A program made the position numbers and the translations under genes. Positions 2,142 to 22,104 of a DNA stretch of 22,104 nt are shown piece by piece (the first letter of the stretch is position 1; each line of letters begins with the position of its first letter). The notes below the pieces were generated by a model. That model worked only from the letters and a program-made list of their open reading frames with translations, searched no databases and was not told the origin of the DNA. Source of the DNA: an uncultured Lachnospiraceae bacterium (lineage in GTDB: Bacteria; Bacillota; Clostridia; Lachnospirales; Lachnospiraceae); NCBI GenBank assembly GCA_949055985.1, contig CARRLP010000001.1, forward strand, positions 1 to 22,104, in the 5' to 3' direction.

Positions 2142-2240
2142 ATAATGTGAGTAAACAAAAACAATATTGTTACTTACTGACACAGTTCCAAATGAAGCGT
2201 ACGGTCATTGGGGATTGCGTCGTATAGCAAATCAAAATTA

Positions 2241-2274
2241 TGCAGCAAGGAAGCTGCAGTAAATTCAAGGAGGA
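2241..2274 (+). promoter_or_regulatory. flagellin mRNA leader with two CsrA-type binding sites: BS1 in a hairpin loop and BS2 overlapping the SD
   Basis: Hairpin tgcagc/AAGGAA/gctgca at 2241-2258 puts GGA in the loop. The SD-overlapping site CAAGGAGGA lies at 2266-2274. This architecture matches the Bacillus subtilis hag leader controlled by CsrA-FliW. Confidence 0.5.
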
Positions 2275-2282
2275 AAAATATT

Positions 2283-3395
2283 ATGGCAATGGTAGTACAG
2301 CACAACCTTACAGCAATGAACGCAAACCGTCAGTTAGGCGTTACAACAAGCGGACAGTCCAAATCAACAGAGAAATTATCCACAGGTTACAGAATTAACC
2401 GCGCAGGCGATGACGCAGCAGGATTAAAAATCTCTGAGAAAATGAGAAGCCAGATCCGCGGATTGAACAAAGCTTCTTCCAACGCGCAGGACGGCGTATC
2501 CCTTATCCAGACAGCAGAAGGCGCATTAAACGAAGCGCACAGCATCCTTCAGAGAATGAATGAGCTTGCAGTTCAGGGCGCAAACGACACAAACCAAGGC
2601 ATCGACCGTGACGCAATCAACCAGGAGTTAAGCGCGTTGACAGAAGAGCTTGACCGTATTTCTGAAACGACACAGTTCAATAAGCAGAGCCTGTTAGACG
2701 GAAGCTTCACAGGAAAGAACCTTCAGGTAGGCGCAAACCAGAACCAGAAGATTACAATCAACATTGCGGCAATGAACGCAGTGGCAATCGGAATCAAACC
2801 GACAGGCGTTGGCGGAACATCCGGATACCTGACAACAAATGAAGTTGTTAAGAATCAGAAGGTTGGCGTTGACAATTCTGCCGCTCTTAGAGGATCCATT
2901 GGTAAATTGGCAGCATGCAATGCTCAGGTAGCTCCAATCTACTCAGCAAACGCAGCAGGCAAACCATACTTCAAGACAGCAAATGGAACAATCACAACTG
3001 ATTCTTCTGTAGTAAGAGCATCTGTTGAGAACTTGGCAAAATGCGCTGCGCAGATCTTCAAAGTGGCAACAAAGGCTGCAACAACAGTCAGCACGCCAAA
3101 CGTAAGGGATTACCAGCAGGCAACAGGTACCATCACAATGGTACAGAACGCAATCAACAATGTATCCAGCCAGAGATCCGCTCTTGGCGCATTACAGAAC
3201 AGATTAGAGCACACGATTGCAAACTTAGACAACGTATCTGAGAATACACAGGCAGCAGAATCCCGTATCCGTGATACAGATATGGCTTCTGAAATGGTAG
3301 AATACAGCAAGAACAACATTCTTGCGCAGGCTGGACAGTCTATGTTAGCTCAGGCAAACCAGTCAAATCAGGGTGTATTATCATTGTTACAGTAA
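2283..3395 (+). CDS. fliC: flagellin (370 aa)
   Basis: The N-terminus MAMVVQHNLTAMNANRQLG and the C-terminus ...LAQANQSNQGVLSLLQ are canonical flagellin D0/D1 segments. The central region is Ser/Thr-rich and variable. GGAGG at 2269-2273 precedes ATG 2283. The ORF-track start at 2208 is an upstream TTG. Confidence 0.95.
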   Translation: MAMVVQHNLTAMNANRQLGVTTSGQSKSTEKLSTGYRINRAGDDAAGLKISEKMRSQIRGLNKASSNAQDGVSLIQTAEGALNEAHSILQRMNELAVQGANDTNQGIDRDAINQELSALTEELDRISETTQFNKQSLLDGSFTGKNLQVGANQNQKITINIAAMNAVAIGIKPTGVGGTSGYLTTNEVVKNQKVGVDNSAALRGSIGKLAACNAQVAPIYSANAAGKPYFKTANGTITTDSSVVRASVENLAKCAAQIFKVATKAATTVSTPNVRDYQQATGTITMVQNAINNVSSQRSALGALQNRLEHTIANLDNVSENTQAAESRIRDTDMASEMVEYSKNNILAQAGQSMLAQANQSNQGVLSLLQ

Positions 3396-3686: not shown

Positions 3687-4028
3687 ATGGAGGAATTTTC
3701 AAATTTATTGTGGCACAATATTGAAATTGTTCAGTGCATTTGTAATAAAATCGAGAATCAGGAAGCGTACATTGAGGATATTCGGGGATACCTTCCTTCT
3801 CTTAATCAAATGATTACATCAATATTTACAAATATGCAGCAAGGGCAAATTTCTTTGGAATTGAATCAAGGCTTTATTATTCAGGCGCTAAATGATATTC
3901 TATATGGAATAGAAAATGAAGATTCTGTATTTTTGCTTGATGTATTGCGATATGGGTTATTAGAAATTTATGGATACATAAGTAGTGAACTGCAAAGTGA
4001 GGGCTGTTATGAATCAGTTAATATATAA
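3687..4028 (+). CDS. hypothetical small protein (113 aa) upstream of maf and overlapping it
   Basis: ATG 3687 is preceded by GGAGGGG (3674-3680). The ORF-track start 3660 is a TTG. No motif recognised, including the FlaG VIRQIP motif. The 3' end overlaps the maf start by 20 nt. Confidence 0.5.
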   Translation: MEEFSNLLWHNIEIVQCICNKIENQEAYIEDIRGYLPSLNQMITSIFTNMQQGQISLELNQGFIIQALNDILYGIENEDSVFLLDVLRYGLLEIYGYISSELQSEGCYESVNI

Positions 4029-5907
4029 AAAAAATCTGGAGGCGTTAAATGCGAAATATCCTATATGGGCGGCTCTTATAGACGGGGTAAAACGTAAAAA
4101 ACGAAATTTCAATGTTGAAGCAGAGCAGAGTTTCATGGGAGAAACTATTTTGAAAGTAACTCAAGATGGGAAAATGCGTTACTTAAATGGAAAATATGCT
4201 CCTTCGGCAGTAGTGGAACGTTGGTTTGAAAAACAGGGAAAAATAGAAGAATACGCGCCAATTGTGATAATAGGCATTTCAAATGGAGAACATATACGAC
4301 AAATTATAGAACGCTCCCCAAAGACTTCTAATATTTTAATTTATGAGCCATCTTTTGAATTATTCCGCAGGGCGATGCAAGAAGTGGATTTAACATTTCT
4401 TTTTGAGATGGATATTCCGGTAGGGATTATTGTTGAGGGATTAAATGAAGATGAGTTAGAAGCTTTCCTTTATTTATTTATATCTTATGACAATATGGCT
4501 TTTCTTCGGTGGTATATTTCAGGGAATTATCAGGAATTATTTCCAAAAGAAGTGGAAGAATTTGTAGGACGTTTAAAGAATCATGTGTCACAAATCCATA
4601 TTGGCTGGAATACAAAATTACGTTATACAAATGTCAGGGCAGTAAATGTATTTGTCAATCTGCCATATTTAGCAGATGGATACAGCATTCGGGAATTGTA
4701 TGGAATGCTTCCGGAAGACGTTCCGGTTATTGTCGTTTCAGCAGGCCCATCTTTAAATAAAAACATTATGGAATTGAAAAAAGCAGTCGGGAAAGCCTGT
4801 ATTATTTCAACAGATACTGCGATAAAGCCTCTCTTAAATGCAGGAATCGTGCCGAATTTCTTTATTATTATAGATGGGTTAAAGCCGGAAGTGCTATTTC
4901 AACATAAGGATATATCTAAAGTTCCTATGGTGACTATGACGGCGGTTTCCACAGAGCCGATGTCATGCCATAAAGGGAAAAAATTCTTTTATGGCGCGGA
5001 GTCTGCATTTGAAGATGAACTTACGGGAGATATAAAGAGGAGCCGTGACGAAGACAGTGACAGAGTGATACCGTTTCTTGTAACTGGCGGTTCTGTTGCG
5101 ACTTCGGCATATGCGCTGGGTTTAAATATGGGAGCTAAGACAGTGATATTAGTGGGTCAGGATCTTGCAATGACCGGGAATAAAACGCATGCAGACGGTA
5201 CATTTCAGGCGCAGATGGATCAGATTGACAAAAATAGCGGCGAATACTTTGAAGTGGAAGCTATAGATGGCGGCAAGGTTTTGACGAGACTTGATTTTGA
5301 TATGTACCGTAAATGGTTTGAAGACCATTTTAAGCAGTGGAATCATGTCACAGTCGTAGATGCGACAGAAGGCGGAGCATTAATTCATGGAACGAAAGTA
5401 ATGACTTTAAAAAAGGCAGTTCAAAAATATTGTGTGCATGAATTTAATGTAAAGTGGCATACGGATCGCTGCAAAAAATTATTTCAAGATGAACAGCGGG
5501 AAGTTGTGTTGGATTATTTTGCAAATTCCCTAAAAAAATTACAGGAAGTGAAGAAAAAAGCGACAGAAGGGATTCGTTTCTATGAACGTCTGGAGAAGAT
5601 GGCGAAAAAAAGCTCGGTATCAGATCAGGAGCTTGGAAAGGCTTTGAAAAAAATCAAGAAATTAAATCATTATATGGAAACTGACTATATGGCGCGCACT
5701 GTTATGGATAGTTTAGATGGTCTAAATTTTACGTTAAGGCCGCTTGCTTATCAATTAAGAGAGGATAAACGGAGCGAGCTTTTAGATGTGGCTAGTCAGG
5801 GAAAAGTGCTACTTTACGGGGTGGCAGTTGCAGTAGATGAAGTATCTGAGATAGCGGAAAAGACGATTGTGCAGTACGCCAATTCCAACAGGACGAAACG
5901 GAAATAA
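4009..5907 (+). CDS. maf: motility accessory factor (Maf family, DUF115/MptE-like), a putative flagellin glycosyltransferase
   Basis: The N-terminus MNQLIYKKNLEALNAKYP is typical of Maf proteins. A GPSL motif (VVSAGPSLNKN) precedes STDTAIKPLLNAGIVPNFFIIIDG. The protein is about 630 aa and adjacent to flagellin. ATG 4009 has GAGGG upstream. Track start 3985 is GTG. Confidence 0.7.
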   Translation: MNQLIYKKNLEALNAKYPIWAALIDGVKRKKRNFNVEAEQSFMGETILKVTQDGKMRYLNGKYAPSAVVERWFEKQGKIEEYAPIVIIGISNGEHIRQIIERSPKTSNILIYEPSFELFRRAMQEVDLTFLFEMDIPVGIIVEGLNEDELEAFLYLFISYDNMAFLRWYISGNYQELFPKEVEEFVGRLKNHVSQIHIGWNTKLRYTNVRAVNVFVNLPYLADGYSIRELYGMLPEDVPVIVVSAGPSLNKNIMELKKAVGKACIISTDTAIKPLLNAGIVPNFFIIIDGLKPEVLFQHKDISKVPMVTMTAVSTEPMSCHKGKKFFYGAESAFEDELTGDIKRSRDEDSDRVIPFLVTGGSVATSAYALGLNMGAKTVILVGQDLAMTGNKTHADGTFQAQMDQIDKNSGEYFEVEAIDGGKVLTRLDFDMYRKWFEDHFKQWNHVTVVDATEGGALIHGTKVMTLKKAVQKYCVHEFNVKWHTDRCKKLFQDEQREVVLDYFANSLKKLQEVKKKATEGIRFYERLEKMAKKSSVSDQELGKALKKIKKLNHYMETDYMARTVMDSLDGLNFTLRPLAYQLREDKRSELLDVASQGKVLLYGVAVAVDEVSEIAEKTIVQYANSNRTKRK

Positions 5908-8483: not shown

Positions 8484-8719
8484 GGGCAATTTTTTTGTTG
8501 CCTTTTTTTTGGTGTCTGCCGTTTGATCCGGTTATGGCTTGTAAAGGATATAAGTGTGTTGGGATAAGAATGGATAAGAATTGTTGGAAGGACGCCTATG
8601 TTTGAAACAAAGACAGCATGGGAAACGCAGTGAATATACTACAATTCTTTTTTTGCGTTTTATAACATTTTTTGCAACAGAAGATAATATGCCAAAATAG
8701 CTGGGAAGAAGGAATTAAA

Positions 8720-10349: not shown

Positions 10350-11411
10350 ATGGCAGATAAAATCCGAATGGATTCGCACAAATTAATTTATCATCCAGAG
10401 AGGGTTGCGGCTTGGAAGCGTGGAGAAAATATATATCCGATTGAATTGGAAATAGGATTAACAAACGCCTGTAATCATAGATGCATTTTTTGCGCAGTGG
10501 ATTATACAGGTTACAAACCGACAATGCTTGAGGCGGATCTTTTAAAATTAAGGATCAGTGAGTTTGCAGAAAAAGGAGTGAAATCTATTATATATGCCGG
10601 AGAAGGGGAACCGCTTTTAAATAAAGACGCGGCAGATATTATTAATTTCACGAAAAAAAGCGGAATAGATGCGGCGTTATCTACAAATGGAGCATTGCTT
10701 ACGCCGGAAGCATCGAGAGACTGTCTGGCTTCTTTGACATGGATTCGTTTTAGTACGGCCGCAATTAGAGAAAAAACGTATGAGAAAATCCATCAATGCC
10801 GGAAAGGAGAGCTTAAAACTGTTTTAAATAATATTCAGGAAGCAGTCCGGACGAAAAAAGATCAAGGGCTCAAAACGACGATTGGCGCGCAATTATTGCT
10901 TCTGCCGGATAATAAAGATGAAGTTGTGGAGATGGCGAAGGAAATGAAAAAAATAGGAGTGGATTATTTTACGGTAAAACCATTTTCGCAGCATCCGTCA
11001 AGCGGCAATATCTTGCAAGTGGATTATCAGGAATTACTGGAATTGGAACGGGAATTAGAAGGAATTGGAACGGAAGAATTTAAAATATATTTCCGGGCGC
11101 ATTCTATGAAGAAATTGGCATGTGAGCGCGGTTATAAGCAATGTCTGGCGCTGCCATTTATGGTATACATTGATGCGAAGGGGAATTTATGGCCCTGTAT
11201 TGTGTTTATGGGGCAGGAACAGTTTAGTTATGGAAATTTATATAATGCATCATTTGAAGAAATATGGGAAGGAGAGCGGAGGAAGAAGCTGATTCAAGAG
11301 TTTTCCCAGATGGATTTAGAGAAAAATTGCAGGGAGTTGTGCAGGCTGGATGAAATGAATAAGTATCTCAATGATTTGAGAAATCCCGGACTTCATGTAA
11401 ATTTTATATAG
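10350..11411 (+). CDS. radical SAM protein (paralog A) with a Cys-rich C-terminal region
   Basis: CNHRCIFC is a CxxxCxxC motif about 40 aa from the N-terminus. Further Cys residues lie in the C-terminal third, possibly for an auxiliary cluster. The protein ends ...HVNFI. It is a clear paralog of the 13218 gene. Confidence 0.75.
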   Translation: MADKIRMDSHKLIYHPERVAAWKRGENIYPIELEIGLTNACNHRCIFCAVDYTGYKPTMLEADLLKLRISEFAEKGVKSIIYAGEGEPLLNKDAADIINFTKKSGIDAALSTNGALLTPEASRDCLASLTWIRFSTAAIREKTYEKIHQCRKGELKTVLNNIQEAVRTKKDQGLKTTIGAQLLLLPDNKDEVVEMAKEMKKIGVDYFTVKPFSQHPSSGNILQVDYQELLELERELEGIGTEEFKIYFRAHSMKKLACERGYKQCLALPFMVYIDAKGNLWPCIVFMGQEQFSYGNLYNASFEEIWEGERRKKLIQEFSQMDLEKNCRELCRLDEMNKYLNDLRNPGLHVNFI

Positions 11412-11461
11412 TATCCGTTTATTCCAATAGGAGAATAAATTTTAAGAGTTAGGAGAGAACG

Positions 11462-12307
11462 ATGGATTTAAAAGAGCGGGCGGCTGAAATAAGAAAAATG
11501 ATTTTTAAAATGGCATACCGGGGAGGGAGCGGGCATTTGGCATCGGCTTTTTCGATTGTGGAAATTTTAACGGTTTTATATTTTGGGGGAATTTTAAATA
11601 TAGATCCGAAAAATCCGGATTGGGCGCAAAGGGATAAATTGATATTAAGCAAGGGACACGCGAGTTTGGCATTATATAGTGTATTGGGTATGAAGGGATT
11701 TTTTCCACAAAAAGAGTTACAGACTTTTTGCAAGCCGGGTTCAGAATTCGGAGGAGAACCCAGAATGGGGCATATAACGGGCGTAGAGGCGACTACAGGC
11801 TCGCTTGGGCATGGGCTTTCATTTGGCGTGGGGATTGCAATGGCGCATAAGATGAATGGGGAAGCGAACAGGACATATGTGATAATTGGAGATGGCGAAT
11901 GCCAAGAAGGAAGCATATGGGAAGCTGTAATAGCGGCGCCGCACCACAAACTAGACAATTTGACAGTGATTTTAGATAATAACAGGCTACAGGCAATGGG
12001 GAAAGTGGAGGATATTCTTGCGTTGCGCCGCCTGCGGGAAAGCTGGGAAAATTTCGGCTGGGGCATCGCAACAGTAGATGGGCACGATATAGAAAAGCTT
12101 TGTAAATGTCTGGATAAGGACAGACAAACGGAGGATGGCAGACCGCATTTAATTTGTGCGGATACAGTGAAAGGAAAAGGCGTTTCCTTTATGGAAAGCG
12201 AGCCCATCTGGCATTATCGGATGCCGAATGAACAGGAATTAGAAATTGTATTGCAAGATTTGGGCATGACAAGAGAGGAGCTGATTCAATGCGAAATGAA
12301 TATTTAG
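11462..12307 (+). CDS. transketolase, N-terminal (TPP-binding) subunit
   Basis: GHITGVEATTGSLGHGLSFGVGIAMA and VIIGDGECQEGSIWEA are the transketolase TPP-binding motifs. The protein is 281 aa. AGGAGA precedes the ATG. Confidence 0.85.
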   Translation: MDLKERAAEIRKMIFKMAYRGGSGHLASAFSIVEILTVLYFGGILNIDPKNPDWAQRDKLILSKGHASLALYSVLGMKGFFPQKELQTFCKPGSEFGGEPRMGHITGVEATTGSLGHGLSFGVGIAMAHKMNGEANRTYVIIGDGECQEGSIWEAVIAAPHHKLDNLTVILDNNRLQAMGKVEDILALRRLRESWENFGWGIATVDGHDIEKLCKCLDKDRQTEDGRPHLICADTVKGKGVSFMESEPIWHYRMPNEQELEIVLQDLGMTREELIQCEMNI

Positions 12308-13212
12308 CGGAACTATATCATCTTGCAAAAAATGATCGGAATGTGCTTTCTTTAGTGTCCGATAATGGCATGATTGTATATGATGAATTTCGGGCGGCTT
12401 TTCCAGAGCAATATTTTAATTTTGGCATTTCAGAATGCCATATGATTGCGGCGGCGGCAGGAATGGCGACATGTGGGAAAATTCCTTTTGCATATACAAT
12501 TAGTTCATTTTTGGCGTACCGGGCATACGAATTTTTAAGGCTGGACGTATGTCTGGAAAATTTGAATGTAAAGATAGTTGGAATAGGCACAGGCGTATCT
12601 TATGGCTATTTAGGCCCTACGCATCATACGACAGAGGATTTGGCTCTTTTGCGATCACTGCCTAATTTGACTATATTTTCTCCGGCAAGCCCAATGGAAG
12701 CGCGCGAGGCGGTACGGGCTGCATATCAAATAAAGGGACCTGTCTATATCCGGCTTGGCAGCAGCGGGGAACCGGAGGTTCATACGGAAAAATTTTCTTT
12801 TGAAATTGGGAAAGGGCAGGTCATATTTGACGGGCATGACATTGCGCTGATAACTTCAGGGGCAATCACGGCTGAAGCGAAAATAGCGGCGGAGCGGCTT
12901 ATGGAAGAAGGAATATCAGTTAAGCTGATTAGTATGCACACGATAAAGCCTTTTGATGAGGATCTTATAGCAAAAACGGCTGAAAAGGTTTCTAAATTAG
13001 CTGTAATAGAAGAACATAATATTATCGGCGGGTTAGGAAGCGCAGTGGCTGAGACATTAGCAGACAGGCAGATTGCAATTCCTTTTTATAGAATTGGGTT
13101 ATATGATCAATTTGCAAAAGGCTATGGAACGGGACAACAGGTACGGATGCAAAATAGGCTGGACAGTGAAGGGATTTATCAACAAATCAGCCAATATGTA
13201 AAGGAAGGATGA
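12289..13212 (+). CDS. transketolase, C-terminal (pyrimidine-binding) subunit
   Basis: FNFGISECHMIAAAAGMATCG is the transketolase Pyr-domain motif. The protein is 307 aa. It overlaps the N-subunit gene by 19 nt. GAGGAG precedes the ATG. Confidence 0.85.
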   Translation: MRNEYLAELYHLAKNDRNVLSLVSDNGMIVYDEFRAAFPEQYFNFGISECHMIAAAAGMATCGKIPFAYTISSFLAYRAYEFLRLDVCLENLNVKIVGIGTGVSYGYLGPTHHTTEDLALLRSLPNLTIFSPASPMEAREAVRAAYQIKGPVYIRLGSSGEPEVHTEKFSFEIGKGQVIFDGHDIALITSGAITAEAKIAAERLMEEGISVKLISMHTIKPFDEDLIAKTAEKVSKLAVIEEHNIIGGLGSAVAETLADRQIAIPFYRIGLYDQFAKGYGTGQQVRMQNRLDSEGIYQQISQYVKEG

Positions 13213-13217
13213 CAAAA

Positions 13218-14327
13218 ATGGAGTCAGAAAAATTAATATTAGACGGCAGTAAAGTATTATGGCACAAAGATAGAATAGAGCAATGGAAAAGGGGGGAGCG
13301 TTTTGCGCCTGTTACGATTGATTGCGCGCTGACTACGAAATGCAGTTACCGCTGTGTGTATTGTTATGGAAAAATGCAGTGCATAAACCAGTCGGATAAT
13401 CTTGACGAAGAAACAATTTTACGCTTTTTAGAGGATGCGGCGGAAATAGGAGTAAAAGCGGTTAGTTTTGTAAGCGATGGAGAAAGCACATGTAACCCAC
13501 ATTTGAAAAAAGCGGTTTTACATGGCAAGAGCCTTGGATTAGATATGGCTCTTGGCACAAATGGCTTTTTGTTAAAAGATGAGGAATTAGAGGAAATTTT
13601 GCCGGCGCTTACTTATCTGCGTTTTAATATATCGGCTGGGGAGAGGGAACGATATGCCGAAATTCATGGCTGCGCCTTAAAATGCTATGATAAAGTAATT
13701 GAAACGATGAAAAAAGCGGTAGATATTAGGGAGAAGAAAGATCTGGCGGTTACAATTGGAATGCAAATGGTTTTAATGCCGGATTTTGCAGATCAGATTC
13801 TTCCGCTTACAAAGTTAGGCAGAGAGATTGGCGTGGATTATCTCGTGATTAAACATTGTAGTGATGATGAGGAAGGCACGCTTGGCGTAAATTACGAAAA
13901 ATATGATGCCGTGATTCCGGTTTTAAAGGAAGCGGAAACTTATTCTACGGATAAGTATCAGGTTTCGGCAAAATGGTCAAAGATTTTAAGCCATGGGAAG
14001 AAAAGTTACTGTAAGTGTTTTGGAGCCCCCTTTATTCTTCAAATGTCGGGTACGGGCCTTGTGGCTCCTTGTGGAATGTTTTTCAATGAGAAATACAGTA
14101 AATACCATATTGGAAATATTAAGGAAAAGAGATTTAAAGAGATATTTGAAAGCGACAGGTATTGGGAAGTTATGAAAATGATAACAGACGAAACTTTTGA
14201 TCCAAACCGCGATTGCGGTACGCTCTGTCTTCAGCATAAAACAAATGAGGCATTGTGGAAGATCTATCAAACAGGGACAATTCCAAAGAGTCCGGAAATT
14301 GAACCGAATCATATTAATTTTATATAA
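13218..14327 (+). CDS. radical SAM protein (paralog B) with a Cys-rich C-terminal region
   Basis: CSYRCVYC is a CxxxCxxC motif. Its N-terminus and C-terminus (...HINFI) align with paralog A. ATG 13218 has AAGGAAGG 9 nt upstream. The track start 13209 abuts that RBS, so 13218 is preferred. Confidence 0.75.
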   Translation: MESEKLILDGSKVLWHKDRIEQWKRGERFAPVTIDCALTTKCSYRCVYCYGKMQCINQSDNLDEETILRFLEDAAEIGVKAVSFVSDGESTCNPHLKKAVLHGKSLGLDMALGTNGFLLKDEELEEILPALTYLRFNISAGERERYAEIHGCALKCYDKVIETMKKAVDIREKKDLAVTIGMQMVLMPDFADQILPLTKLGREIGVDYLVIKHCSDDEEGTLGVNYEKYDAVIPVLKEAETYSTDKYQVSAKWSKILSHGKKSYCKCFGAPFILQMSGTGLVAPCGMFFNEKYSKYHIGNIKEKRFKEIFESDRYWEVMKMITDETFDPNRDCGTLCLQHKTNEALWKIYQTGTIPKSPEIEPNHINFI

Positions 14328-14366
14328 ATTTCAGAAATCTGGAAAAATAAGCATGGAGGCTGAAAA

Positions 14367-15896
14367 ATGGCACTTGTTGTGACAAAAGCGGAATTTAGGA
14401 ATATAAGAAAGGAATTGCGGGCGGAAGGGAAGAAAGTGGTTCTCTGCCATGGCGTATTTGATTTAGTGCATCCCGGCCATATCATTCATTTTGAAGAAGC
14501 AAAAAAGATGGGGGACGTTTTAGTGGCGTCTGTCACGGCGGCAAAATATGTGAGAAAAGGTCCGGATAGGCCGTATTTTGGAGATGAGATGCGTCTGAAA
14601 TTTTTATCTTCGATTGCGTATATTGATTATATTCTTTTGTCAGAGGGCTTTACTGTAGATGATATTATTGAAGCGGCGGAGCCGGACTTGTATGTAAAAG
14701 GCTCGGAGTATCAGGCGCAAGAAGATGACATTACCGGAAAGATTGCCGGAGAAATAGAGCTGGTCCGTAAACATGGAGGGGAAATTGCTTATACAGGCGG
14801 GCAGGTGTTTAGTTCAACGAAACTAATCAACCATGCTTTTCCATCACTTTCTGAGGAAGTGAAACAATTTATGAAATCATTTTCAGATAAGTATAGTTTA
14901 TCTGAAATCAGAGCGCTGGCGGAAAAAATTTCGGGCTTTAAGATAGCGGTAATTGGAGACGTAATTATAGATGAATATATTTATTGCAATGTACAGGGGT
15001 TAATGTCGAAAGACAGGGGATATTCTGCCCGTTATAGATATGTGGAGCAGTATTTAGGCGGTTCGTTAGCCGTGGCGAGGCATATTGCCTCATTTTGTGA
15101 CGACGTCACTCTTTTGAGCGTTGTAGGGAAAGAGGAGGCGGTACATAGCCGGATGTTAGACGAACTTGGCGATAAGATGAGGATAGACGTAACGTTTAGC
15201 GATGTTTTTGAAACCATTATAAAAACACGGTACGTTTCCATGAATGAAAAACGGGAAGAGCTTGATAAAATTTTCGCTGTAAATAACCTTCCTGTATATA
15301 TGCGCATTGATAAACCTGCATTAGATAAGTTTAAAGAAAAAATAAAAGAGAAAATAGAACAGTGTGACGTGGTTATTTTGTGTGATTTTGGGCATGGGCT
15401 GATAGATGAAGAAGTGATGGATTTGATTCAGTCTAAGGCGAAGTTTTTAGCGTTGAACTGCCAGACTAATTCATCGAATTATGGAAAAAATTTAATTACA
15501 AAATATAAACGGGCAGATGTATTTGCGATTGACCAGAAAGAATTGGGGCTGGCATTTGCGAATTACCGTTTAGATGAGCAAGAGCTTCTTCAGAAGTTAG
15601 AAAAACATTTGGACTGCCATGGGTGGCTGACACAGGGATCCCAAGGGGCAGTTTCGATTGAAGATGGAGAAATAAAACATTGTCCGGCATTTGTTTTAAA
15701 AGTGAAAGACACCATTGGAGCAGGGGATGCGTTCTTTTCCATTGCAAGCTTATTTGCGGCAGCAGGCGCTTCCATGGAGATGGGAACATTTATGGGAAAT
15801 ATTGCGGGGGCATTGGCGACAAATATCGTAGGAAACAAAAAAGGCATTGATAAAGTAGATGTACTGAAGTACGCTTCTACTTTACTTAATATATGA
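14367..15896 (+). CDS. bifunctional heptose-phosphate nucleotidyltransferase / sugar kinase (HldE/RfaE-like) with reversed domain order
   Basis: The N-terminal 140 aa carry a cytidylyltransferase-like HxGH motif (GVFDLVHPGHIIHF). The C-terminal 330 aa form a PfkB-family kinase with a DTIGAGDAF anion-hole motif. In E. coli HldE the kinase is N-terminal. Confidence 0.7.
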   Translation: MALVVTKAEFRNIRKELRAEGKKVVLCHGVFDLVHPGHIIHFEEAKKMGDVLVASVTAAKYVRKGPDRPYFGDEMRLKFLSSIAYIDYILLSEGFTVDDIIEAAEPDLYVKGSEYQAQEDDITGKIAGEIELVRKHGGEIAYTGGQVFSSTKLINHAFPSLSEEVKQFMKSFSDKYSLSEIRALAEKISGFKIAVIGDVIIDEYIYCNVQGLMSKDRGYSARYRYVEQYLGGSLAVARHIASFCDDVTLLSVVGKEEAVHSRMLDELGDKMRIDVTFSDVFETIIKTRYVSMNEKREELDKIFAVNNLPVYMRIDKPALDKFKEKIKEKIEQCDVVILCDFGHGLIDEEVMDLIQSKAKFLALNCQTNSSNYGKNLITKYKRADVFAIDQKELGLAFANYRLDEQELLQKLEKHLDCHGWLTQGSQGAVSIEDGEIKHCPAFVLKVKDTIGAGDAFFSIASLFAAAGASMEMGTFMGNIAGALATNIVGNKKGIDKVDVLKYASTLLNI

Positions 15897-15934
15897 TGAT
15901 TCTAAAGATATATTTATAAAATGGAGGGTAAGAA

Positions 15935-17575
15935 ATGAAGATTTTGTTGGTGGTTCCGCAATACTATAGCCGGAAAGAACGATATTATCAAATGCCATTA
16001 GGCTTAGCGTATGTGAATGCAGCTCTGCGGGAAGCAAATTTAGATGTGCAATGCCTGAATATGAACCATATTGAAGCAGAAGACGCCTATTCAGTTTTAG
16101 CTGAACGGGTAGTAAATTCCAATATTGACGTTGTCCTTTGCGGCGGAATAAGCCCGCTTTGGAAAACGATTGAAAAAGTGTTTGATACAGTTAAAAGGGC
16201 AAAAGCTTCCATAATTACTGTGGGGGGGGGTGGAGCCTTTACGTCGGAGCCTCTTATTTCAGCGGAACTTCTTGAAGTAGATTATGCTGTAATTGGAGAA
16301 GGGGAGATTACAGATGTAGAGCTTATTCAAACGTTGATGGCGAATCAGAATGTAAGCAATGTAAAAGGAATTGTATATAAAACGCCGGACGGATATAGGC
16401 AGACGGCTCCGAGGGAAGAAATTGCCGATGTGGATTCCATTCCATTTCCATGCTATGAGGGGTTTGACATGGATTTATATTTAGAAAATCAAATGGTGAG
16501 CGATGAATATTATTCTTTTTATTCGGACAAGCCGAGAATTATGCCGATGATTTTAGGCAGGTCATGCCCTTATCAATGCAAATTTTGTTTTCACCCTATA
16601 GGAAATAAATACAGGGTGCGAAGTCTGGATAATTTTTTTATGGAACTGGATCAATGGAAGAATAAGTATGCTCCAACCTGTATTTTGATATTAGATGAAT
16701 TATTTAGCGCAAGCGTTGAAAGAGTGTATGAGTTTTGTGAAAGAATAAAAGGATATGAGATAAAATGGATTGTCCAAATGCGGGTGGATATTATCACGAA
16801 AGAGTTATTGCAGACAATGCGGGACGCCGGATGCCTCAGCATCAGTTATGGACTTGAAAGTTTTAGCCCTGCAGTTTTGAAAAATATGAGAAAACATATC
16901 TCTTTAGCAGACATAGAAAACGCTTTAAAATTGACTTATGAAGCAAAAATAGACATTCAGGGCAATTTTATTTTTGGAGACGAGTTAGAAAATGAGCATA
17001 CGATATATGAAACATTGCGGTTTTGGTTTCAGCATCCAGAATATAAAATTAATTTGGGGTGGATAGAGACATATCCGGGATGCGGCTATTATCAGGAATT
17101 ATCAAAAAATTGGAGCGTTGAGGAGAAAAAAGCATTTTTAGAAATGAGTGAATGGCTGACAAATTTAACAAAGATGCCAGATGAAGAATATGGGAAATAT
17201 AAAGTTGTGATTCAACTGCTTACATTTTATTATAACCCAGATTGTGTGAAAGAAAAAGAGACGCGGACAGACGAAAATGGCGATGGGATTATTGAAGCGA
17301 AGTGCGTGCATTGCGGTTCGGTAAATCGGTGGGCAGGAGTTAAAAAATATCTGCTAAATCAATCGTATTTTAAATTATGCTGCCGGAAATGCAATCATAG
17401 GAATGTGATTTACAGCAGGAAAGAAAGGTTAAAAAATTGGGATTTAATTCTGCCATTATGTGAGAAAATGGCTTTGGCAACAAAGGAAGATGAATTTATT
17501 AAAGCGGTAAACGCTTTATATGAGACGTATATGGTGACGCATGACCCAGAAAATCCATTTCCTGTTTTGTTTTAG
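15935..17575 (+). CDS. B12-binding-domain radical SAM enzyme (class B) with a C-terminal Cys4 zinc-ribbon-like tail
   Basis: The N-terminus ILLVVPQ...MPLGLAYVNAAL...VVLCGG is a B12-binding-like domain. The radical SAM motif is CPYQCKFC. The C-terminus has CVHCGS...CCRKCNH. A G9 tract lies at 16222-16230, encoding GGGG. Confidence 0.75.
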   Translation: MKILLVVPQYYSRKERYYQMPLGLAYVNAALREANLDVQCLNMNHIEAEDAYSVLAERVVNSNIDVVLCGGISPLWKTIEKVFDTVKRAKASIITVGGGGAFTSEPLISAELLEVDYAVIGEGEITDVELIQTLMANQNVSNVKGIVYKTPDGYRQTAPREEIADVDSIPFPCYEGFDMDLYLENQMVSDEYYSFYSDKPRIMPMILGRSCPYQCKFCFHPIGNKYRVRSLDNFFMELDQWKNKYAPTCILILDELFSASVERVYEFCERIKGYEIKWIVQMRVDIITKELLQTMRDAGCLSISYGLESFSPAVLKNMRKHISLADIENALKLTYEAKIDIQGNFIFGDELENEHTIYETLRFWFQHPEYKINLGWIETYPGCGYYQELSKNWSVEEKKAFLEMSEWLTNLTKMPDEEYGKYKVVIQLLTFYYNPDCVKEKETRTDENGDGIIEAKCVHCGSVNRWAGVKKYLLNQSYFKLCCRKCNHRNVIYSRKERLKNWDLILPLCEKMALATKEDEFIKAVNALYETYMVTHDPENPFPVLF

Positions 17576-17592: not shown

Positions 17593-18288
17593 TTAAATTG
17601 TGACATTAAAGTATTGTTGGGCCTTACAGTATTTTTTCTGCCTGTTTCTGATTAAGACACTGCCGTCAGGGTTACGCAGCACAACGGAATCATCGGAGAC
17701 CGGCTGTCCATATACAAACGCATCTACTCCAATGGATACACGGTTTCCGATTGGTTCATTGCCTATAATTTTAGCTCCGGCGGCTAAGTAGAGCCCTTTT
17801 CCGAGTTTTGGGACAGTTTCGCCGACAGGGCTTTCACCGGTATTGATGGTGACATTTTGGCCTATTACAAGAAAATCACTGTAAGCTGCATTGCCAATTA
17901 CGCTTCCTACCGGATGTGTAAGGAAGAATATTTCCGGCAGTTTGCCTTTGTAAGAGATAAAAAAACTATGTAAAGTTTTATTCAAGTAAATTAATTTGTC
18001 ACAGACAGATTTGTTTGCGGAAAGCTCCCACAGTGAGTTAGCCCAAAAATATAAAAACTGGGCATACTGGTCAGAATGCAGATGCGAGAAAAATGTTTCG
18101 CCTTGGTTATCTGAATATGCGGAATTTTTAATAAAACGGAAGCAATGCTCTGTCCGTTCTAAGGCGCGTTCAAAAGCGGCGTCAACGTCGCTGCCTTTTA
18201 GAGTATGAGTATTGCGATCCGGAAAAAAAAGCTCTAACTGATGCAGCGTATATGTTTGAAGTTCTTGTTTCGGTAATGATAGGTTCAT
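17593..18288 (-). CDS. hexapeptide-repeat (left-handed beta-helix) acetyltransferase, serine-acetyltransferase-like, a probable sugar O/N-acetyltransferase
   Basis: The C-terminal half has hexapeptide repeats (VGSVIGNAAYSDFLVIGQNVTINTG...). ATG at 18288 overlaps the upstream TGA as ATGA, with GGAAG in front. The longer track ORF start at 18405 falls inside the GT2 gene. Confidence 0.6.
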   Translation of the reverse strand: MNLSLPKQELQTYTLHQLELFFPDRNTHTLKGSDVDAAFERALERTEHCFRFIKNSAYSDNQGETFFSHLHSDQYAQFLYFWANSLWELSANKSVCDKLIYLNKTLHSFFISYKGKLPEIFFLTHPVGSVIGNAAYSDFLVIGQNVTINTGESPVGETVPKLGKGLYLAAGAKIIGNEPIGNRVSIGVDAFVYGQPVSDDSVVLRNPDGSVLIRNRQKKYCKAQQYFNVTI

Positions 18289-19256
18289 TTCTTCTTCCTT
18301 TTTTGAATATAAATTGGCTCTAAAATAAAACGTGGGAGAATTGCGTATGGCCATACATGGAACCATATCGTAGGATATTTGTATGTATTTAAAAATAATA
18401 TCCATTTATCGTCCATATCATACTGATTATCCTCTACGCTGTATTTTAGGATAGAATCTTTAATAAATCCTTTCATGTCAGTAAGAAAGATTTTTTTCAT
18501 CTGGCTTTTTGGAAAACCGGCTTTTACGGCTGTTTGGAGCAAAAGTCTTTTATATTGCTTTACCCAGACTTCAAATAAATTAAATCCGCCGCTGTTATTA
18601 TTTTTTGCGGCTAAATAGGGGGCTTTTGTCAGGATCATTTTAGTATTTTTGCCTGAGAGAATGTGAAATACGATATGCGCGTGTAGAAAATGGGTTCCAA
18701 AATATTTCTCAGGATGCTTTATTTGTTTAAATTTGCTCATTTTCAGAACGGTTGCAGATATATACGTTACATAAACGCCAATGTAATTCATCAGAAGGGT
18801 TTTATCGTAAGTAATCAGATCGTTTGTTTCCCTAAGTTTTATTCTTGGCGCTTTTCTAATGTCCGGATTGAATGTCTGTGTTGAATATGTAAAAGAATTT
18901 ATATTAATATAGGCTGGTCTTTCTGTTTTTATCAGATATAATATTTTTTTTATCGCTCCGGGCAGCAATATGTCATCGTCCGAGAGAAACTGTATATATT
19001 CGCCGTTCGCTTTTTGGAAACAGTTAAAAAAATTTTTATCCATACCCAAATTTTTTGAATTACGATAATAACGTATCTTATGTTCTTTGCAATATTTTTT
19101 CATTACTTTTGGGGTCTCGTCTGTGGAAGCGTTATCTGATACAAGGATTTCAACGCCGTCTTCCAACTGCCCTAGCGCGCTTTCTAATGACTGGCATAAT
19201 AAATGACAGCGGTTATAGGTAGGGATAGCGACTGTCAGTATAATTTTTTGTCCCAT
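18285..19256 (-). CDS. family 2 glycosyltransferase (GT-A fold)
   Basis: ILTVAIPTYNR...SDNASTDET...DDD fits the GT2 DxD architecture. ATG 19256 has AGAGGT upstream. The N-terminal extension in the track ORF overlaps the upstream gene. Confidence 0.7.
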   Translation of the reverse strand: MGQKIILTVAIPTYNRCHLLCQSLESALGQLEDGVEILVSDNASTDETPKVMKKYCKEHKIRYYRNSKNLGMDKNFFNCFQKANGEYIQFLSDDDILLPGAIKKILYLIKTERPAYININSFTYSTQTFNPDIRKAPRIKLRETNDLITYDKTLLMNYIGVYVTYISATVLKMSKFKQIKHPEKYFGTHFLHAHIVFHILSGKNTKMILTKAPYLAAKNNNSGGFNLFEVWVKQYKRLLLQTAVKAGFPKSQMKKIFLTDMKGFIKDSILKYSVEDNQYDMDDKWILFLNTYKYPTIWFHVWPYAILPRFILEPIYIQKRKKK

Positions 19257-19260
19257 GATC

Positions 19261-20193
19261 TTACCTCTTTCTTTTGGTTTCATAATACTGGATTGTTTTT
19301 TGGATGCCTTCTTCAAAGGGAATTTCAGGCTTCCAGCCGGTATCTCTTGTAAGAGGTTCAATATTGATACAAGAACTTGGCATTATGCCGGGGGAGCTGA
19401 TTTTTCTTTCGGGAGGGGGAGTTTTTTCTCCAATGCCTAAAGGAAGCGATGGGTTTATCATGTCCCGAATAGTTAAGACGTATTCCCGAAGTGTTTTGTG
19501 CGTTCCGCTTCCTATTCCATATGTAATATTATGCCTGCCTTTCTCTCCAATTTTAATAATTGCTTTTGCTACATCTGATACATAGACAAAATCCCAATTA
19601 GACTGGAGATTGCCATAGACAGGGTATTTGCCATCTAAAAGAGTGGTAATCGTATAAGTCAGGATATTGTCTTCTGTTCTTCCTTCCCCATATGTGCTTG
19701 GAAGAACAGTCCAAATCATATCCTGCCCTAATTGCGCGGCAACGGCTTCTAACAGATAGTGGACGGAAGTTTTTGTGGCTCCATAGATGTCAATGGGCGT
19801 CTGTTTCCTTGAAAAATCAATGACGCATACATTATAAACATATTCTGCCACTGTGCCTGCGGCCAGAAATAGTTTGCATTTTAAATATTTAGAGAGACGT
19901 AACATATCCAGAGAAGTTTCGATATTGCTTAATTGCAAAGGAATGTTGTTTTTTTCTTTCCCAGAAACGCCTGCCCAGCCAAGATGATAAAATATATCAT
20001 ATGTTTTTCCAGACAGCCTTTGCGCCAGTTCTTTAAATTGATAGCCGGCAGTTATTGTTTTTACGGAAGAATTATGAAATGGCATAGAGGAGGGGGAGGA
20101 GGTCAGGACGGTTACGTTAGCGCCTGATTTTAATAATTCCGCAACAACATATCTGCCGATAAATCCGGTTCCTCCTGTAAGAATGGCTTTCAT
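19261..20193 (-). CDS. NAD(P)-dependent epimerase/dehydratase/reductase (extended SDR)
   Basis: The N-terminus ILTGGTGFIGRYV is a Rossmann motif. The catalytic YxxxK motif is YGATK. The protein is 310 aa. Confidence 0.75.
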   Translation of the reverse strand: MKAILTGGTGFIGRYVVAELLKSGANVTVLTSSPSSMPFHNSSVKTITAGYQFKELAQRLSGKTYDIFYHLGWAGVSGKEKNNIPLQLSNIETSLDMLRLSKYLKCKLFLAAGTVAEYVYNVCVIDFSRKQTPIDIYGATKTSVHYLLEAVAAQLGQDMIWTVLPSTYGEGRTEDNILTYTITTLLDGKYPVYGNLQSNWDFVYVSDVAKAIIKIGEKGRHNITYGIGSGTHKTLREYVLTIRDMINPSLPLGIGEKTPPPERKISSPGIMPSSCINIEPLTRDTGWKPEIPFEEGIQKTIQYYETKRKR

Positions 20194-20203
20194 ATTCTTC
20201 CTC

Positions 20204-21217
20204 CTACTGTTCCATGCGTTTTAGAATGATGTCTGCATAGCTGTCTATATCGTCGGTTGTATTCGCCGACAGGCTTTCGCAATGTCTGCAGATTGGTATA
20301 TCGTCTTTCCTCTTTTTTAAGTGGAGTTTTTGGTACTGGCAAAGTTTTTCGCCATTCCAAATATCCGCAATTTTTTCGGTTTTTAAATCGCCTAAAATAT
20401 ATTCTGTTTTCCAGTCTACACAGCACAGATGCGCAATGCCGGAATGGTTTATTACCATCGTAGTAAATAAAAATGGGCAGACTTCTTTTGGTTGTAGCTC
20501 CTGGCCGTAAGTGCCTTTATGGGCGTTGTTTATTTTTGCGCCGATATTTGTGTCCTGCCAAAGGGTGGAAGAAATGGTTTCTACAAATATTTCGTCAGAC
20601 ACTTTTTCAAATGTCTGGTAAAAATTCTGTTTTTCTGTTTCGGTATAACCAATATCGCTGTATTTAATAAAGATTTTACAATTCTGTTTATTTTTATAGA
20701 AAAACTCGATTTTTTTATAGAAATCCTGAAAGTCCATTTCGTATTGGCATACGTCTTTGTACTGTTGTTCATTAATTCCATTTACTGAAATATTTAATAT
20801 GTCAAGACCTGCCTCAATAAGCTCAAGGCTGAGCGTTTCGTTTAGAAGCGTGCCGTTGGTCGTGATTTCAATACATTCTGCGGCCTCTGCTTTTTTGGCA
20901 TAGGCTGCCATTTGGGCAATCTTGGGATTCATCAAGGGCTCTCCGATTTTAAACAGCCTTAATTTTTTGATTTTTTGTCTGCCCCAGCAAGAGACAATGT
21001 CGTCTATGATTTTTTGGAAAAGTTCCAAAGACATTGCGCCAAATGTTACATTAGATTTTTTTATGGTTTCCATGTCTGAGTGGAAACAAAAATTGCATTT
21101 TAAATTACAGGCGCTGCATACGTCAATTTGAATTGCAAAGGGCGCGGAAAGCGGCAGAACTTCCTGTAACGGGGTTCTTTCCCTTGCGTAAATTTTGGCT
21201 CTTCTTATTGCGCTCAT
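20204..21217 (-). CDS. radical SAM enzyme with a C-terminal SPASM-type auxiliary cluster domain
   Basis: CNLKCNFC is a CxxxCxxC motif. The C-terminal Cys array CPFLF...HLCCVDW...CQYQ...CRHC is SPASM-like. GGAGGT lies 7 nt before ATG 21217. Confidence 0.75.
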   Translation of the reverse strand: MSAIRRAKIYARERTPLQEVLPLSAPFAIQIDVCSACNLKCNFCFHSDMETIKKSNVTFGAMSLELFQKIIDDIVSCWGRQKIKKLRLFKIGEPLMNPKIAQMAAYAKKAEAAECIEITTNGTLLNETLSLELIEAGLDILNISVNGINEQQYKDVCQYEMDFQDFYKKIEFFYKNKQNCKIFIKYSDIGYTETEKQNFYQTFEKVSDEIFVETISSTLWQDTNIGAKINNAHKGTYGQELQPKEVCPFLFTTMVINHSGIAHLCCVDWKTEYILGDLKTEKIADIWNGEKLCQYQKLHLKKRKDDIPICRHCESLSANTTDDIDSYADIILKRMEQ

Positions 21218-21243
21218 CGTTGTACCTCCGTGTGGTCTGCTTT

Positions 21244-22104
21244 TTAAGGCAGCATAAGTTTTTTTATTTCATCTTCTTCTAAGAAAGGATACATATCATG
21301 TAAAGCGGGAGTTTTCATTTTGCCGTTTTCATCTATGCGTGACATGACTTTTGGAATAACAGGATCGTCAAATGCCTGCAATACTTCCAGTATCATATGC
21401 TTTGTTGTCTGCATAAAAGCATGTAAGCAGGAATCCACTTCGCCATTATTATGGCAGCAAAGATATTTAAACCCGAATGTGTCTGCAATTTTTTTAAAAT
21501 CAGGGAAACTTACTCCGGTATCCGGCGTACAGCCAATGTATTCTCCTTGAAAGAAGTTTTTTGAAGTCTGCCGGATTGCCCCATAACCTTCATTTGAAAA
21601 GATAACGATTGAAATTGGAAGATCGTACTGGGCAATCGTTTGAAGTTCTTGTAGGTTCATCATTATGCTTCCGTTTCCTGTAATGCAGTATACGCCGGAT
21701 TTGGAGGAGATGGCGGCGCCTATGGCCGCGGGAATATCGTATCCCATAGATCCGCAAGTATAATTTGTAAGAATCCGTTGGTTTCTCTTTTGGGTTCCAA
21801 TTTGTAATTTTGCAGTATTTGCGCTGTTGTTGCCAAGCGCTAAAATGCTGTTATCCGGTTCATGTGAATGGAACTGTTTCCAAAAATAGTAGGAAGAAAC
21901 CCTGTCTGACAAATGAACGCCATGCCGGATTGCTTCATATGGAGAAAAGCGTTCTTTTAGGTTTTGGCAGTAGGAAAGCCATTCTTTATGCGGCATACAG
22001 GGGATGACGCTCTGTCTGGCAGTTTCAAAAAACTGATTTAGGTCTATATGGAGGCTCTTTTGGATTTTAAGCCCCGGTTTTAGGGCTTCGTTTTTGTCAG
22101 CGTC
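21244..22104 (-). CDS. TPP-dependent enzyme, acetolactate-synthase-like family, C-terminal TPP-binding domain; 5' end outside the window
   Basis: GSMGYDIPAAIGA...ITGNGSIMMNLQEL is the TPP-binding motif of the ALS/POX family. The reading frame stays open from 21996 to the window end. The track ORF's first Met is therefore internal. Confidence 0.7.
   Translation of the reverse strand, partial: DADKNEALKPGLKIQKSLHIDLNQFFETARQSVIPCMPHKEWLSYCQNLKERFSPYEAIRHGVHLSDRVSSYYFWKQFHSHEPDNSILALGNNSANTAKLQIGTQKRNQRILTNYTCGSMGYDIPAAIGAAISSKSGVYCITGNGSIMMNLQELQTIAQYDLPISIVIFSNEGYGAIRQTSKNFFQGEYIGCTPDTGVSFPDFKKIADTFGFKYLCCHNNGEVDSCLHAFMQTTKHMILEVLQAFDDPVIPKVMSRIDENGKMKTPALHDMYPFLEEDEIKKLMLP

Follow-up and report, generated by a model that had tools for sequence, protein, structure and literature searches.

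We describe a five-gene module, in DNA from an uncultured Lachnospiraceae bacterium, that probably belongs to a pathway for a carbon-branched sugar destined for flagellin. The DNA is the 22,104-nucleotide (nt) stretch at positions 1 to 22,104 of contig CARRLP010000001.1 (assembly GCA_949055985.1), hereafter the window. In the reading that we favor, and hold to be likely though well short of certain, a thiamine diphosphate (ThDP) enzyme resembling YerE of yersiniose biosynthesis would branch a nucleotide-activated keto-sugar, a radical S-adenosylmethionine (SAM) enzyme with a Twitch domain and short-chain dehydrogenases/reductases (SDRs) would tailor the product, and the flagellin glycan would receive it. 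A pathway of this known kind, YerE-type C-branching of a keto sugar, is supported by the evidence below. New are the flagellin island of a gut Firmicute as its setting, its conserved partners (a Twitch radical SAM enzyme and an SDR), and a natural variant of the ThDP motif.

The module occupies positions 17593-22104, where five co-directional minus-strand genes leave no room for others:

22104..21244, minus strand: ThDP enzyme, C-terminal 286 amino acids (residues 309-594), the gene continuing past the window (Pfam TPP_enzyme_C, E 1.1e-31)
21217..20204, minus strand: radical SAM enzyme, 337 amino acids (Pfam Radical_SAM, 1e-14; SPASM, 1.7e-13)
20193..19261, minus strand: extended SDR of 310 amino acids, SDR310 (Pfam Epimerase, 3e-31)
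19256..18285, minus strand: family 2 glycosyltransferase (GT2), 323 amino acids (Pfam Glycos_transf_2, 8.8e-28)
18288..17593, minus strand: possible CysE/EpsC-like left-handed beta-helix acyltransferase, 231 amino acids (sub-cutoff CysE and EpsC matches)

In this order the genes are separated by 26, 10 and 4 nt, and the last two, for GT2 and the acetyltransferase, overlap by 4 nt at an ATGA. GGAGG stands 5' of the radical SAM and SDR310 genes, and AGAGG and AAGGAAG stand 5' of the last two. A first-pass annotation, made from the sequence without database searches, had described five tightly packed co-directional genes, ribosome-binding sites of the GGAGG type and a leading TPP-dependent enzyme of the acetolactate synthase (ALS) family, and all of this holds. 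It had also counted two ATGA overlaps, of which only that between the GT2 and acetyltransferase genes exists; the ATGA at the start of the radical SAM gene is no overlap, because the ThDP stop codon lies 26 nt earlier. A promoter and terminator scan of the operon returned sites no more frequently than in shuffled sequences, and an Rfam scan of the window returned no families.

The radical SAM protein is present, identical, in 839 blocks of a public assembly collection, and three long contigs carrying it were fetched: L003 (ENA ERR675511_1, 215 kb), which matches the window at 100% identity along 11.9 kb, and L001 and L002, which are 99.85% identical to the window. The upstream sequence that the annotation had proposed obtaining thus came from L003, where the completed ThDP gene (L003:8190-9971) encodes 594 amino acids with N, M and C domains. 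Before it, outside the window, lies a sixth co-directional gene, encoding an RmlD-like SDR of 295 amino acids (SDR295), which together with the module makes up a six-gene operon: SDR295 and then, as its distal part, ThDP enzyme, radical SAM enzyme, SDR310, GT2 and acetyltransferase.

What kind of ThDP enzyme is this? In the full protein Pfam places TPP_enzyme_N at residues 4-106, a central M domain at 200-316, for which binding of flavin adenine dinucleotide is predicted, and TPP_enzyme_C at 404-549. An ordinary ALS, serving branched-chain amino acids or acetoin and neighboring the sugar genes by chance, would fit the best NCBIfam matches, which are ALS models (E 8e-90), and the name that one source gives the protein ('acetolactate synthase-1/2/3 large subunit'). 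Those matches nevertheless fall far short of their cutoffs, with 301.6 bits against 738 for the best (PRK08978) and 289.7 against 538.35 for TIGR00118, and all other equivalog models, those for ALS included, likewise score below cutoff. Among the genes called on the fetched contigs none within 10 kb of the module is ilvN, ilvH, ilvC or ilvD, and the window holds no ALS small subunit, ilvC or ilvD. Solved structures give JanthE (8rph) as the best match (338 bits, E 1e-99, aligned residues 4-593), followed by 5ahk, which we take to be the structure of PpYerE, at 246 bits; the bit scores of E. coli ALS I (201) and of plant acetohydroxyacid synthase (AHAS; 174) are lower. Identity is about 32% to JanthE and about 30% to PpYerE. 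The alignment to JanthE runs end to end, C-terminal tail included; the lysine equivalent to JanthE K567 is present, as is the catalytic Glu50 in HHEQ, and the residue matching JanthE V121 is leucine.

A neighbor-joining tree was built from the window enzyme, 41 ThDP enzymes adjoining radical SAM homologs, JanthE, PpYerE and five E. coli enzymes (IlvB, IlvI, Gcl, PoxB and Oxc). In 197 of 200 bootstraps the window enzyme, its 41 relatives, JanthE and PpYerE make up a single clade, apart from the E. coli enzymes. The checks that the first-pass annotation had suggested, a phylogeny and a search for an FAD-type middle domain, therefore came out in its favor, and the outcome that it had named as fatal, grouping with true ALS beside ilvN and ilvC, is not what we found, because the enzyme lies outside the E. 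coli ALS group and below the ALS cutoffs and neither gene occurs within 10 kb. The gene is moreover tightly embedded in a sugar operon conserved across phyla. On cutoffs, neighborhood and tree we reject a bona fide ALS, a reading that we regard as scarcely credible, and the support from the predicted protein is for a YerE-like carboligase of the ketone-accepting type. JanthE and PpYerE are characterized YerE-like enzymes that take ketones as acceptors. PpYerE is named in the literature, without a structure code, as a solved YerE-like enzyme, and YerE-like enzymes are described as the sole decarboxylase subclass known to accept isolated ketones (PMC12247030).

The company that the ThDP enzyme keeps is conserved far beyond the Lachnospiraceae. 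A family alignment of the radical SAM enzyme was used to scan one genome per species, giving 56 distinct loci with a homolog of at least 200 bits, whose open reading frames (ORFs) were clustered and the commonest clusters annotated. The radical SAM enzyme (53/56 loci), the SDR295 family (47/56) and the ThDP enzyme (45/56) head the resulting cassette, followed by a TylC3-type C-methyltransferase (33/56), an E1-like 3-dehydrase of DegT type and rich in cysteine (29/56), an HpcH/HpaI aldolase (27/56), a second radical SAM enzyme (26/56), and proteins resembling CDP-glucose 4,6-dehydratase and glucose-1-phosphate cytidylyltransferase (24/56 each; CDP, cytidine diphosphate). Hosts include Elusimicrobia, Pelagibacter, Prochlorococcus, Pseudoalteromonas, Magnetococcales, Saccharibacteria, Desulfobacterota and Planctomycetes. 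With the close Lachnospiraceae relatives left out, 45 loci remain; an SDR295-family gene lies directly 3' of the radical SAM gene in 33 of them, and the ThDP gene is on the same strand, about 1-7 kb away, in 30. Three of the close relatives (L007, L009 and L012), and about half of the distant loci, have genes resembling ddhABC, and an E3 (DdhD)-like reductase is not among the conserved neighbors. Judged by their gene content, the cassette loci are usually CDP-3,6-dideoxyhexose clusters that also carry an aldolase. E1-like 3-dehydrases with the Cys-rich motif are, as a separate observation, common in L004, L005 and most of the loci that do not belong to the close Lachnospiraceae relatives.

The remaining genes of the module are lineage-specific, as far as their homologs indicate. 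SDR310 has the GxxGxxG and YxxxK motifs and lacks the D-E pair of dehydratases, its PDB relatives are RmlB and GalE-type enzymes (40-72 bits), and it is a probable nucleotide-sugar ketoreductase or epimerase. As a candidate for the conserved YerF-like partner it was rejected, being only 23% identical to SDR295 and adjoining the cassette only in the close relatives L007, L008 and L012. The first-pass annotation had proposed a branching route in which an ALS-like enzyme, an SDR and a radical SAM enzyme act together; the clade, the failure of the ALS models and the deoxy-keto-sugar clusters across phyla support the route, but its conserved SDR is SDR295, outside the window, and not SDR310. GT2, with chondroitin synthase and SpsA as PDB relatives, is kept with the cassette in the same three loci only. 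The acetyltransferase that the annotation had named is weakly assigned: the 231-residue protein has no Pfam match, its NCBIfam matches to CysE (44.8 bits, cutoff 210.65) and EpsC (44.2 bits, cutoff 150) are below cutoff, and serine acetyltransferase structures in the PDB match it at E of about 1e-7. Its gene follows the cassette in L007, L008, L009, L012 and L014.

The nearest known systems are YerE/YerF of Yersinia pseudotuberculosis O:VI, ErwE/ErwF, and MMAR_2332 of caryophyllose biosynthesis, which share with the cassette an ALS-like ThDP enzyme with a central domain, nucleotide-sugar neighbors and an NAD(P)H reductase. YerE and ErwE branch CDP-4-keto-3,6-dideoxyglucose, and YerF or ErwF then carries out a reduction (PMC12247030, PMC9306805). 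The erwiniose genes of Steitz et al. comprise the CDP-4-keto-3,6-dideoxyglucose set, an aldolase for a longer 2-keto acid donor, ErwE and ErwF (PMC9306805); the conserved cassette matches this cluster, the radical SAM enzymes and the C-methyltransferase being its additions. The yersiniose system differs from the one here in several respects. Here the host, an anaerobe, is Gram-positive, the genes keep company with flagellin and Maf instead of O-antigen, and the yersiniose set of cytidylyltransferase, CDP-glucose 4,6-dehydratase, E1 and E3 is absent from the roughly 30 kb seen, whereas PseB is present. The literature consulted does not describe a conserved Twitch radical SAM companion, and YpYerE and ErwE are compared with the window enzyme by description only. 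For JanthE and PpYerE the physiological substrates are themselves undefined. Our literature search found nothing that connects yersiniose with flagellin, and nothing that connects radical SAM enzymes with either YerE-like enzymes or the glycosylation of flagellin, though Krug et al. 2024 (on JanthE) may mention the radical SAM neighbor.

We infer the substrates, the order of steps, the type of radical SAM reaction, the target protein and the roles of GT2 and the acetyltransferase as follows. The ThDP enzyme would remove CO2 from a 2-keto acid, which could be pyruvate or have a longer chain, and join the resulting acyl anion equivalent onto the carbonyl group of a 4-keto-6-deoxy sugar in nucleotide-activated form, giving a C-acyl-branched sugar with a tertiary alcohol. 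In the close relatives the acceptor would be a CDP-4-keto-3,6-dideoxyhexose made by the ddhABC-like genes. In this genome it would most likely be the product of PseB, UDP-4-keto-6-deoxy-N-acetylhexosamine (UDP, uridine diphosphate), the PseB gene lying some 5 kb upstream of the module, next to a further SDR gene:

L003:1427-3335, minus strand: PseB and an SDR of 293 amino acids, about 5-7 kb past the window end

PseB scores 508 bits against a cutoff of 408 with the equivalog for the inverting UDP-N-acetylglucosamine 4,6-dehydratase, the 293-residue SDR is a paralog of SDR295 (46% identity), and no PseC, PseH, PseG, PseI or PseF genes are in view around PseB. The radical SAM enzyme would then abstract a carbinol hydrogen on the sugar or on the branch, most likely forming a ketone, with its fully ligated auxiliary cluster as electron sink, and an SDR would re-reduce that ketone; the SDR295 family is the likely YerF-type ketoreductase partner. 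The CysE-like enzyme may O-acylate the sugar, and GT2 or Maf would pass the finished sugar into the flagellin glycan.

A different use of the same genes is conceivable, in which the ThDP enzyme makes an acyloin or aldehyde that then becomes an N- or O-acyl or alkyl substituent of, for instance, an amino sugar or nonulosonic acid, to be tailored there by the radical SAM enzyme and SDR. Loci L006, L010, L012 and L015 carry NeuB- and NeuC-like genes instead of ddh genes, the acceptor in this genome is itself conjecture, and YerE-like enzymes couple aldehydes in a benzoin-type manner in vitro (PMC9306805), all of which would suit such a route. The module, however, has no aminotransferase or acyl-activating gene, and the commonest companions of the cassette are 4-keto-3,6-dideoxyhexose enzymes and the HpcH aldolase, the published arrangement for ring branching in erwiniose. 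We consider the substituent route improbable, and ring branching remains the reading that we follow.

The radical SAM enzyme is the least familiar member of the cassette. The CX3CX2C motif (C37, C41 and C44) and the GEP SAM-binding motif are invariant in the family alignment, and the only invariant cysteines of the C-terminal part are C247, C265, C310 and C313, in the pattern CX12GX4C ... CX2C. A SPASM motif has seven cysteines, CX9-15GX4C-gap-CX2CX5CX3C-gap-C, whereas a Twitch domain holds one auxiliary cluster (PMC6231123). The CX5CX3C part of the SPASM motif is absent here, and with only four invariant C-terminal cysteines the enzyme has a Twitch domain with one auxiliary cluster, so that 'SPASM', as the first-pass annotation called it, is a Pfam label only. 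In a phmmer alignment residues 255-325 pair without gaps with BtrN 177-247, and C265, C310 and C313 fall on Cys187, Cys232 and Cys235, which we take to be the auxiliary cluster ligands of BtrN described by Goldman et al. 2013. The closest fold by two methods is also that of BtrN, followed by DesII and BlsE, all of which act on sugars or cyclitols. Core motif, four cysteines and fold together are those of a BtrN-type Twitch enzyme. The protein reaches the cutoff of none of the NCBIfam models (best 84 bits, cutoff 380), and a profile search of 1.84 billion representatives (50% identity clusters) returned 1,929 proteins at E<=1e-30, by which measure it belongs to a large, unnamed family.

That the enzyme is instead a SPASM-type maturase of RiPPs (peptides that ribosomes make and that are altered after translation), apart from any sugar chemistry, is very unlikely, and we reject it: it has four conserved C-terminal cysteines and not seven, its sugar-enzyme neighbors are conserved in the 56 loci, its top folds are sugar or cyclitol enzymes, and no precursor ORF fits into a module whose intergenic gaps are at most 26 nt. 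By analogy, we favor for it a BtrN-like reaction, in which a carbinol hydrogen would be abstracted and the position oxidized to a ketone, in concert with an SDR, and an epimerase role is another candidate. BtrN itself, the 2-deoxy-scyllo-inosamine dehydrogenase of butirosin biosynthesis, is a distant precedent, only 17-20% identical; the window enzyme is about 90 residues longer and is partnered with a ThDP enzyme and an SDR. A second precedent is the AprD4/AprD3 pair of apramycin C3' deoxygenation, in which a radical SAM enzyme likewise has an NAD(P)H-dependent reductase as its genetic partner in the modification of a sugar. An AprD-like pair would remove a hydroxyl of the branched sugar by radical 1,2-diol dehydration followed by ketoreduction (precedent in PMC5461906); the close pairing of a radical SAM gene with an SDR gene, found in 33 of 45 loci, and the vicinal diol of a YerE/YerF product would fit it, and we rate it as an unlikely alternative to ketone formation.

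The window carries an unusual allele of the ThDP enzyme. Its AAC codon at 21673..21675 (minus strand) places Asn452 at the invariant Asp of G-D-G in the ThDP/Mg motif GDG-X25-N(N), so that the window and L003 read ITGNGS where L001 and L002 read ITGDGS, by a single-nucleotide difference at position 21675 (A versus G; L003:9543). GDG is found in 120/120 homologs among the matches listed and in 39 of the 44 aligned clade sequences, the others being the window enzyme (GNG), JanthE (CDG), L055 (GEG) and two unresolved. JanthE, from Janthinobacterium sp. HH01, therefore departs from GDG too but keeps the Asp, which the window allele replaces. A second D-to-N change linked to the GNG allele ('ATMLTNPYA') lies upstream, outside the window. 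Contigs from several sources (NCBI, JGI, ENA and Logan), 94 in all, carry a protein identical to the GNG one, which rules out a sequencing error and makes this a real, circulating allele; the GDG allele, on 415 contigs, is the major one in the same species. The motif Asp is the Mg ligand of the ThDP motif, and a D-to-N change at the equivalent position of E. coli AHAS II is tolerated, with altered Mg and ThDP affinity.

Where does the branched sugar go? We regard flagellin, rather than lipopolysaccharide or capsule, as the probable destination, a proposal that goes beyond the first-pass annotation. The left part of the window contains:

2208..3395, plus strand: flagellin, the likely glycosylation target (Pfam Flagellin_N 1.6e-43, Flagellin_C 4.1e-28)
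3985..5907, plus strand: Maf/MptE-like motility accessory factor of the flagellin glycosyltransferase family (MptE-like 1.3e-34; weak Maf_flag10_N)

Flagellin, Maf and sugar biosynthesis genes are clustered, as in Maf-type islands, which marks the window as an island for flagellin glycosylation. The arrangement in two relatives is good circumstantial evidence for the destination, since flagellin, Maf and cassette are contiguous and co-directional in both. The order in L008 is flagellin, a small ORF, Maf, a homolog of the 561- and 571-residue proteins described below, SDR295, ThDP enzyme, radical SAM enzyme, SDR310, GT2 and acetyltransferase; in L009, where all of the genes point one way, flagellin, a small ORF and Maf come before a GT1-like gene, SDR295, ThDP enzyme, radical SAM enzyme, acetyltransferase and ddhA/B/C-like genes, in that order. 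A Maf gene lies within 10 kb in 6 of 10 related Lachnospiraceae loci, with homologs in L007, L008, L009, L011, L013 and L014. A capsule, S-layer or cell-wall polysaccharide could be served instead: in this genome two other operons, over some 12 kb, stand between the module and the flagellin and Maf genes, beyond the close Lachnospiraceae relatives no flagellin or Maf homolog above 100 bits occurs within 10 kb, and GT2 enzymes usually use lipid-linked or soluble acceptors. Set against this are the contiguity in L008 and L009, the nearby Maf in six of the ten related loci, and the lack of any Wzx, Wzy, ABC exporter or initiating phosphotransferase gene in the window, and we give another glycan a small share of the probability. 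Maf-type islands of Campylobacter, Helicobacter and Clostridium, which usually make pseudaminic or legionaminic acid, share the cluster of flagellin, Maf and PseB, but there is no PseC/H/G/I/F set here, and a ThDP carboligase, a transketolase, heptose genes and four radical SAM genes stand in its place.

Between flagellin and the module, and beyond the window end, the island contains further genes and one doubtful ORF:

5988-8109, minus strand: GmhA-like SIS isomerase, GmhB-like HAD phosphatase and a GalE/UXS-like SDR of 327 amino acids (SDR327)
8672-10300, plus strand: protein of 542 amino acids, with only C2185-like_N at 17 bits and no family
10350-17575, plus strand: rightward operon with two radical SAM/SPASM paralogs, a split transketolase, an HldE-like protein and a B12-binding radical SAM protein
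11449-12207, minus strand: Ser/Pro-rich ORF of 252 amino acids, antisense to the gene for the transketolase N half
L003:3345-7039, minus strand: paralogs of 571 and 561 amino acids, 41% identical, only one with a weak GT2 match

The GmhA- and GmhB-like genes, SDR327 and the HldE-like gene indicate, by their predicted functions, a nucleotide-heptose branch in the same island. SDR327 was considered as a heptose 4,6-dehydratase supplying the acceptor, which is unlikely because its active-site SSSCYG is epimerase- or decarboxylase-like. In the rightward operon the radical SAM/SPASM paralogs are 27% identical and both end in H[VI]NFI, the transketolase is encoded as N and C halves, and the HldE-like kinase/nucleotidyltransferase has its domain order reversed; with these the window holds three radical SAM genes besides that of the module. 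The block recurs in L014, where the 542-residue protein is also kept beside it (799 bits). Split transketolases have been proposed as keto-sugar branchers only in Streptomyces (PMC12247030), and the operon could encode a second ThDP-dependent system for sugar branching or chain extension. The 252-residue ORF is almost certainly not a gene. Farther upstream of the module, on the opposite strand, are the two paralogs with weak GT2 similarity, the 293-residue SDR and PseB. In L008 a homolog of the 561- and 571-residue proteins separates Maf from SDR295, and in L007 one adjoins the cassette; the two paralogs are candidate flagellin-glycan transferases. The left flank of the island (L003:1-400, a gene of 485 amino acids) diverges from L001 and L002 far more than the remainder, which is 99.85% identical, suggesting a recombination boundary. 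The bacterium has a G+C content of roughly 39%, and NCBI assigns the ThDP protein to a metagenome-assembled genome labeled 'Eubacterium sp.'.

Several points weigh against the pathway as we propose it. The ThDP clade is anchored only by JanthE and PpYerE, without YpYerE, ErwE or MMAR_2332, in a neighbor-joining tree with only E. coli outgroups. No ddhABC-like genes or HpcH aldolase occur in the roughly 30 kb seen of this genome, so that acceptor and donor are guesses; of two metagenome scans for an extension leftward toward ddh genes, the first had no match and the second gave one 5-kb contig of no use, and PseB might supply some other sugar by way of the reductase next to it. Some 12 kb of this genome lie between the module and the flagellin and Maf genes, and another surface glycan could be served. 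Fold likeness among Twitch and SPASM enzymes is no guide to reaction type (PMC6231123). Asn in place of the Mg-binding Asp may weaken or abolish the activity of the window allele, and the pathway is a prediction from gene content.

A broader reading goes further, and we offer it as a doubtful one. The Twitch radical SAM enzyme and SDR295 would form an undescribed tailoring unit for YerE-type branched sugars, performing radical oxidation and re-reduction, deoxygenation or rearrangement of tertiary-alcohol C-acyl sugars. These sugars would be a widespread new class, ranging from Pelagibacter and Prochlorococcus to Elusimicrobia, that decorates flagellin in gut Lachnospiraceae, and GDG/GNG would act as an on/off switch.

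YerE-type branching is known from Gram-negative and mycobacterial lipopolysaccharides and lipooligosaccharides and has been studied mostly as a biocatalyst, and Lachnospiraceae flagellins are TLR5 ligands and Crohn's-associated antigens. YerE-type branching in the flagellin islands of these abundant gut bacteria would mean that a protein of immunological importance carries a branched sugar not yet known. The circulating D452N allele provides a natural test of whether the GDG aspartate is necessary in YerE-like enzymes. The unnamed radical SAM family, for its part, gains a clear biochemical context from its YerE-like, SDR, aldolase, C-methyltransferase and E1-like dehydrase partners, and its chemistry is likely to be new radical sugar chemistry.

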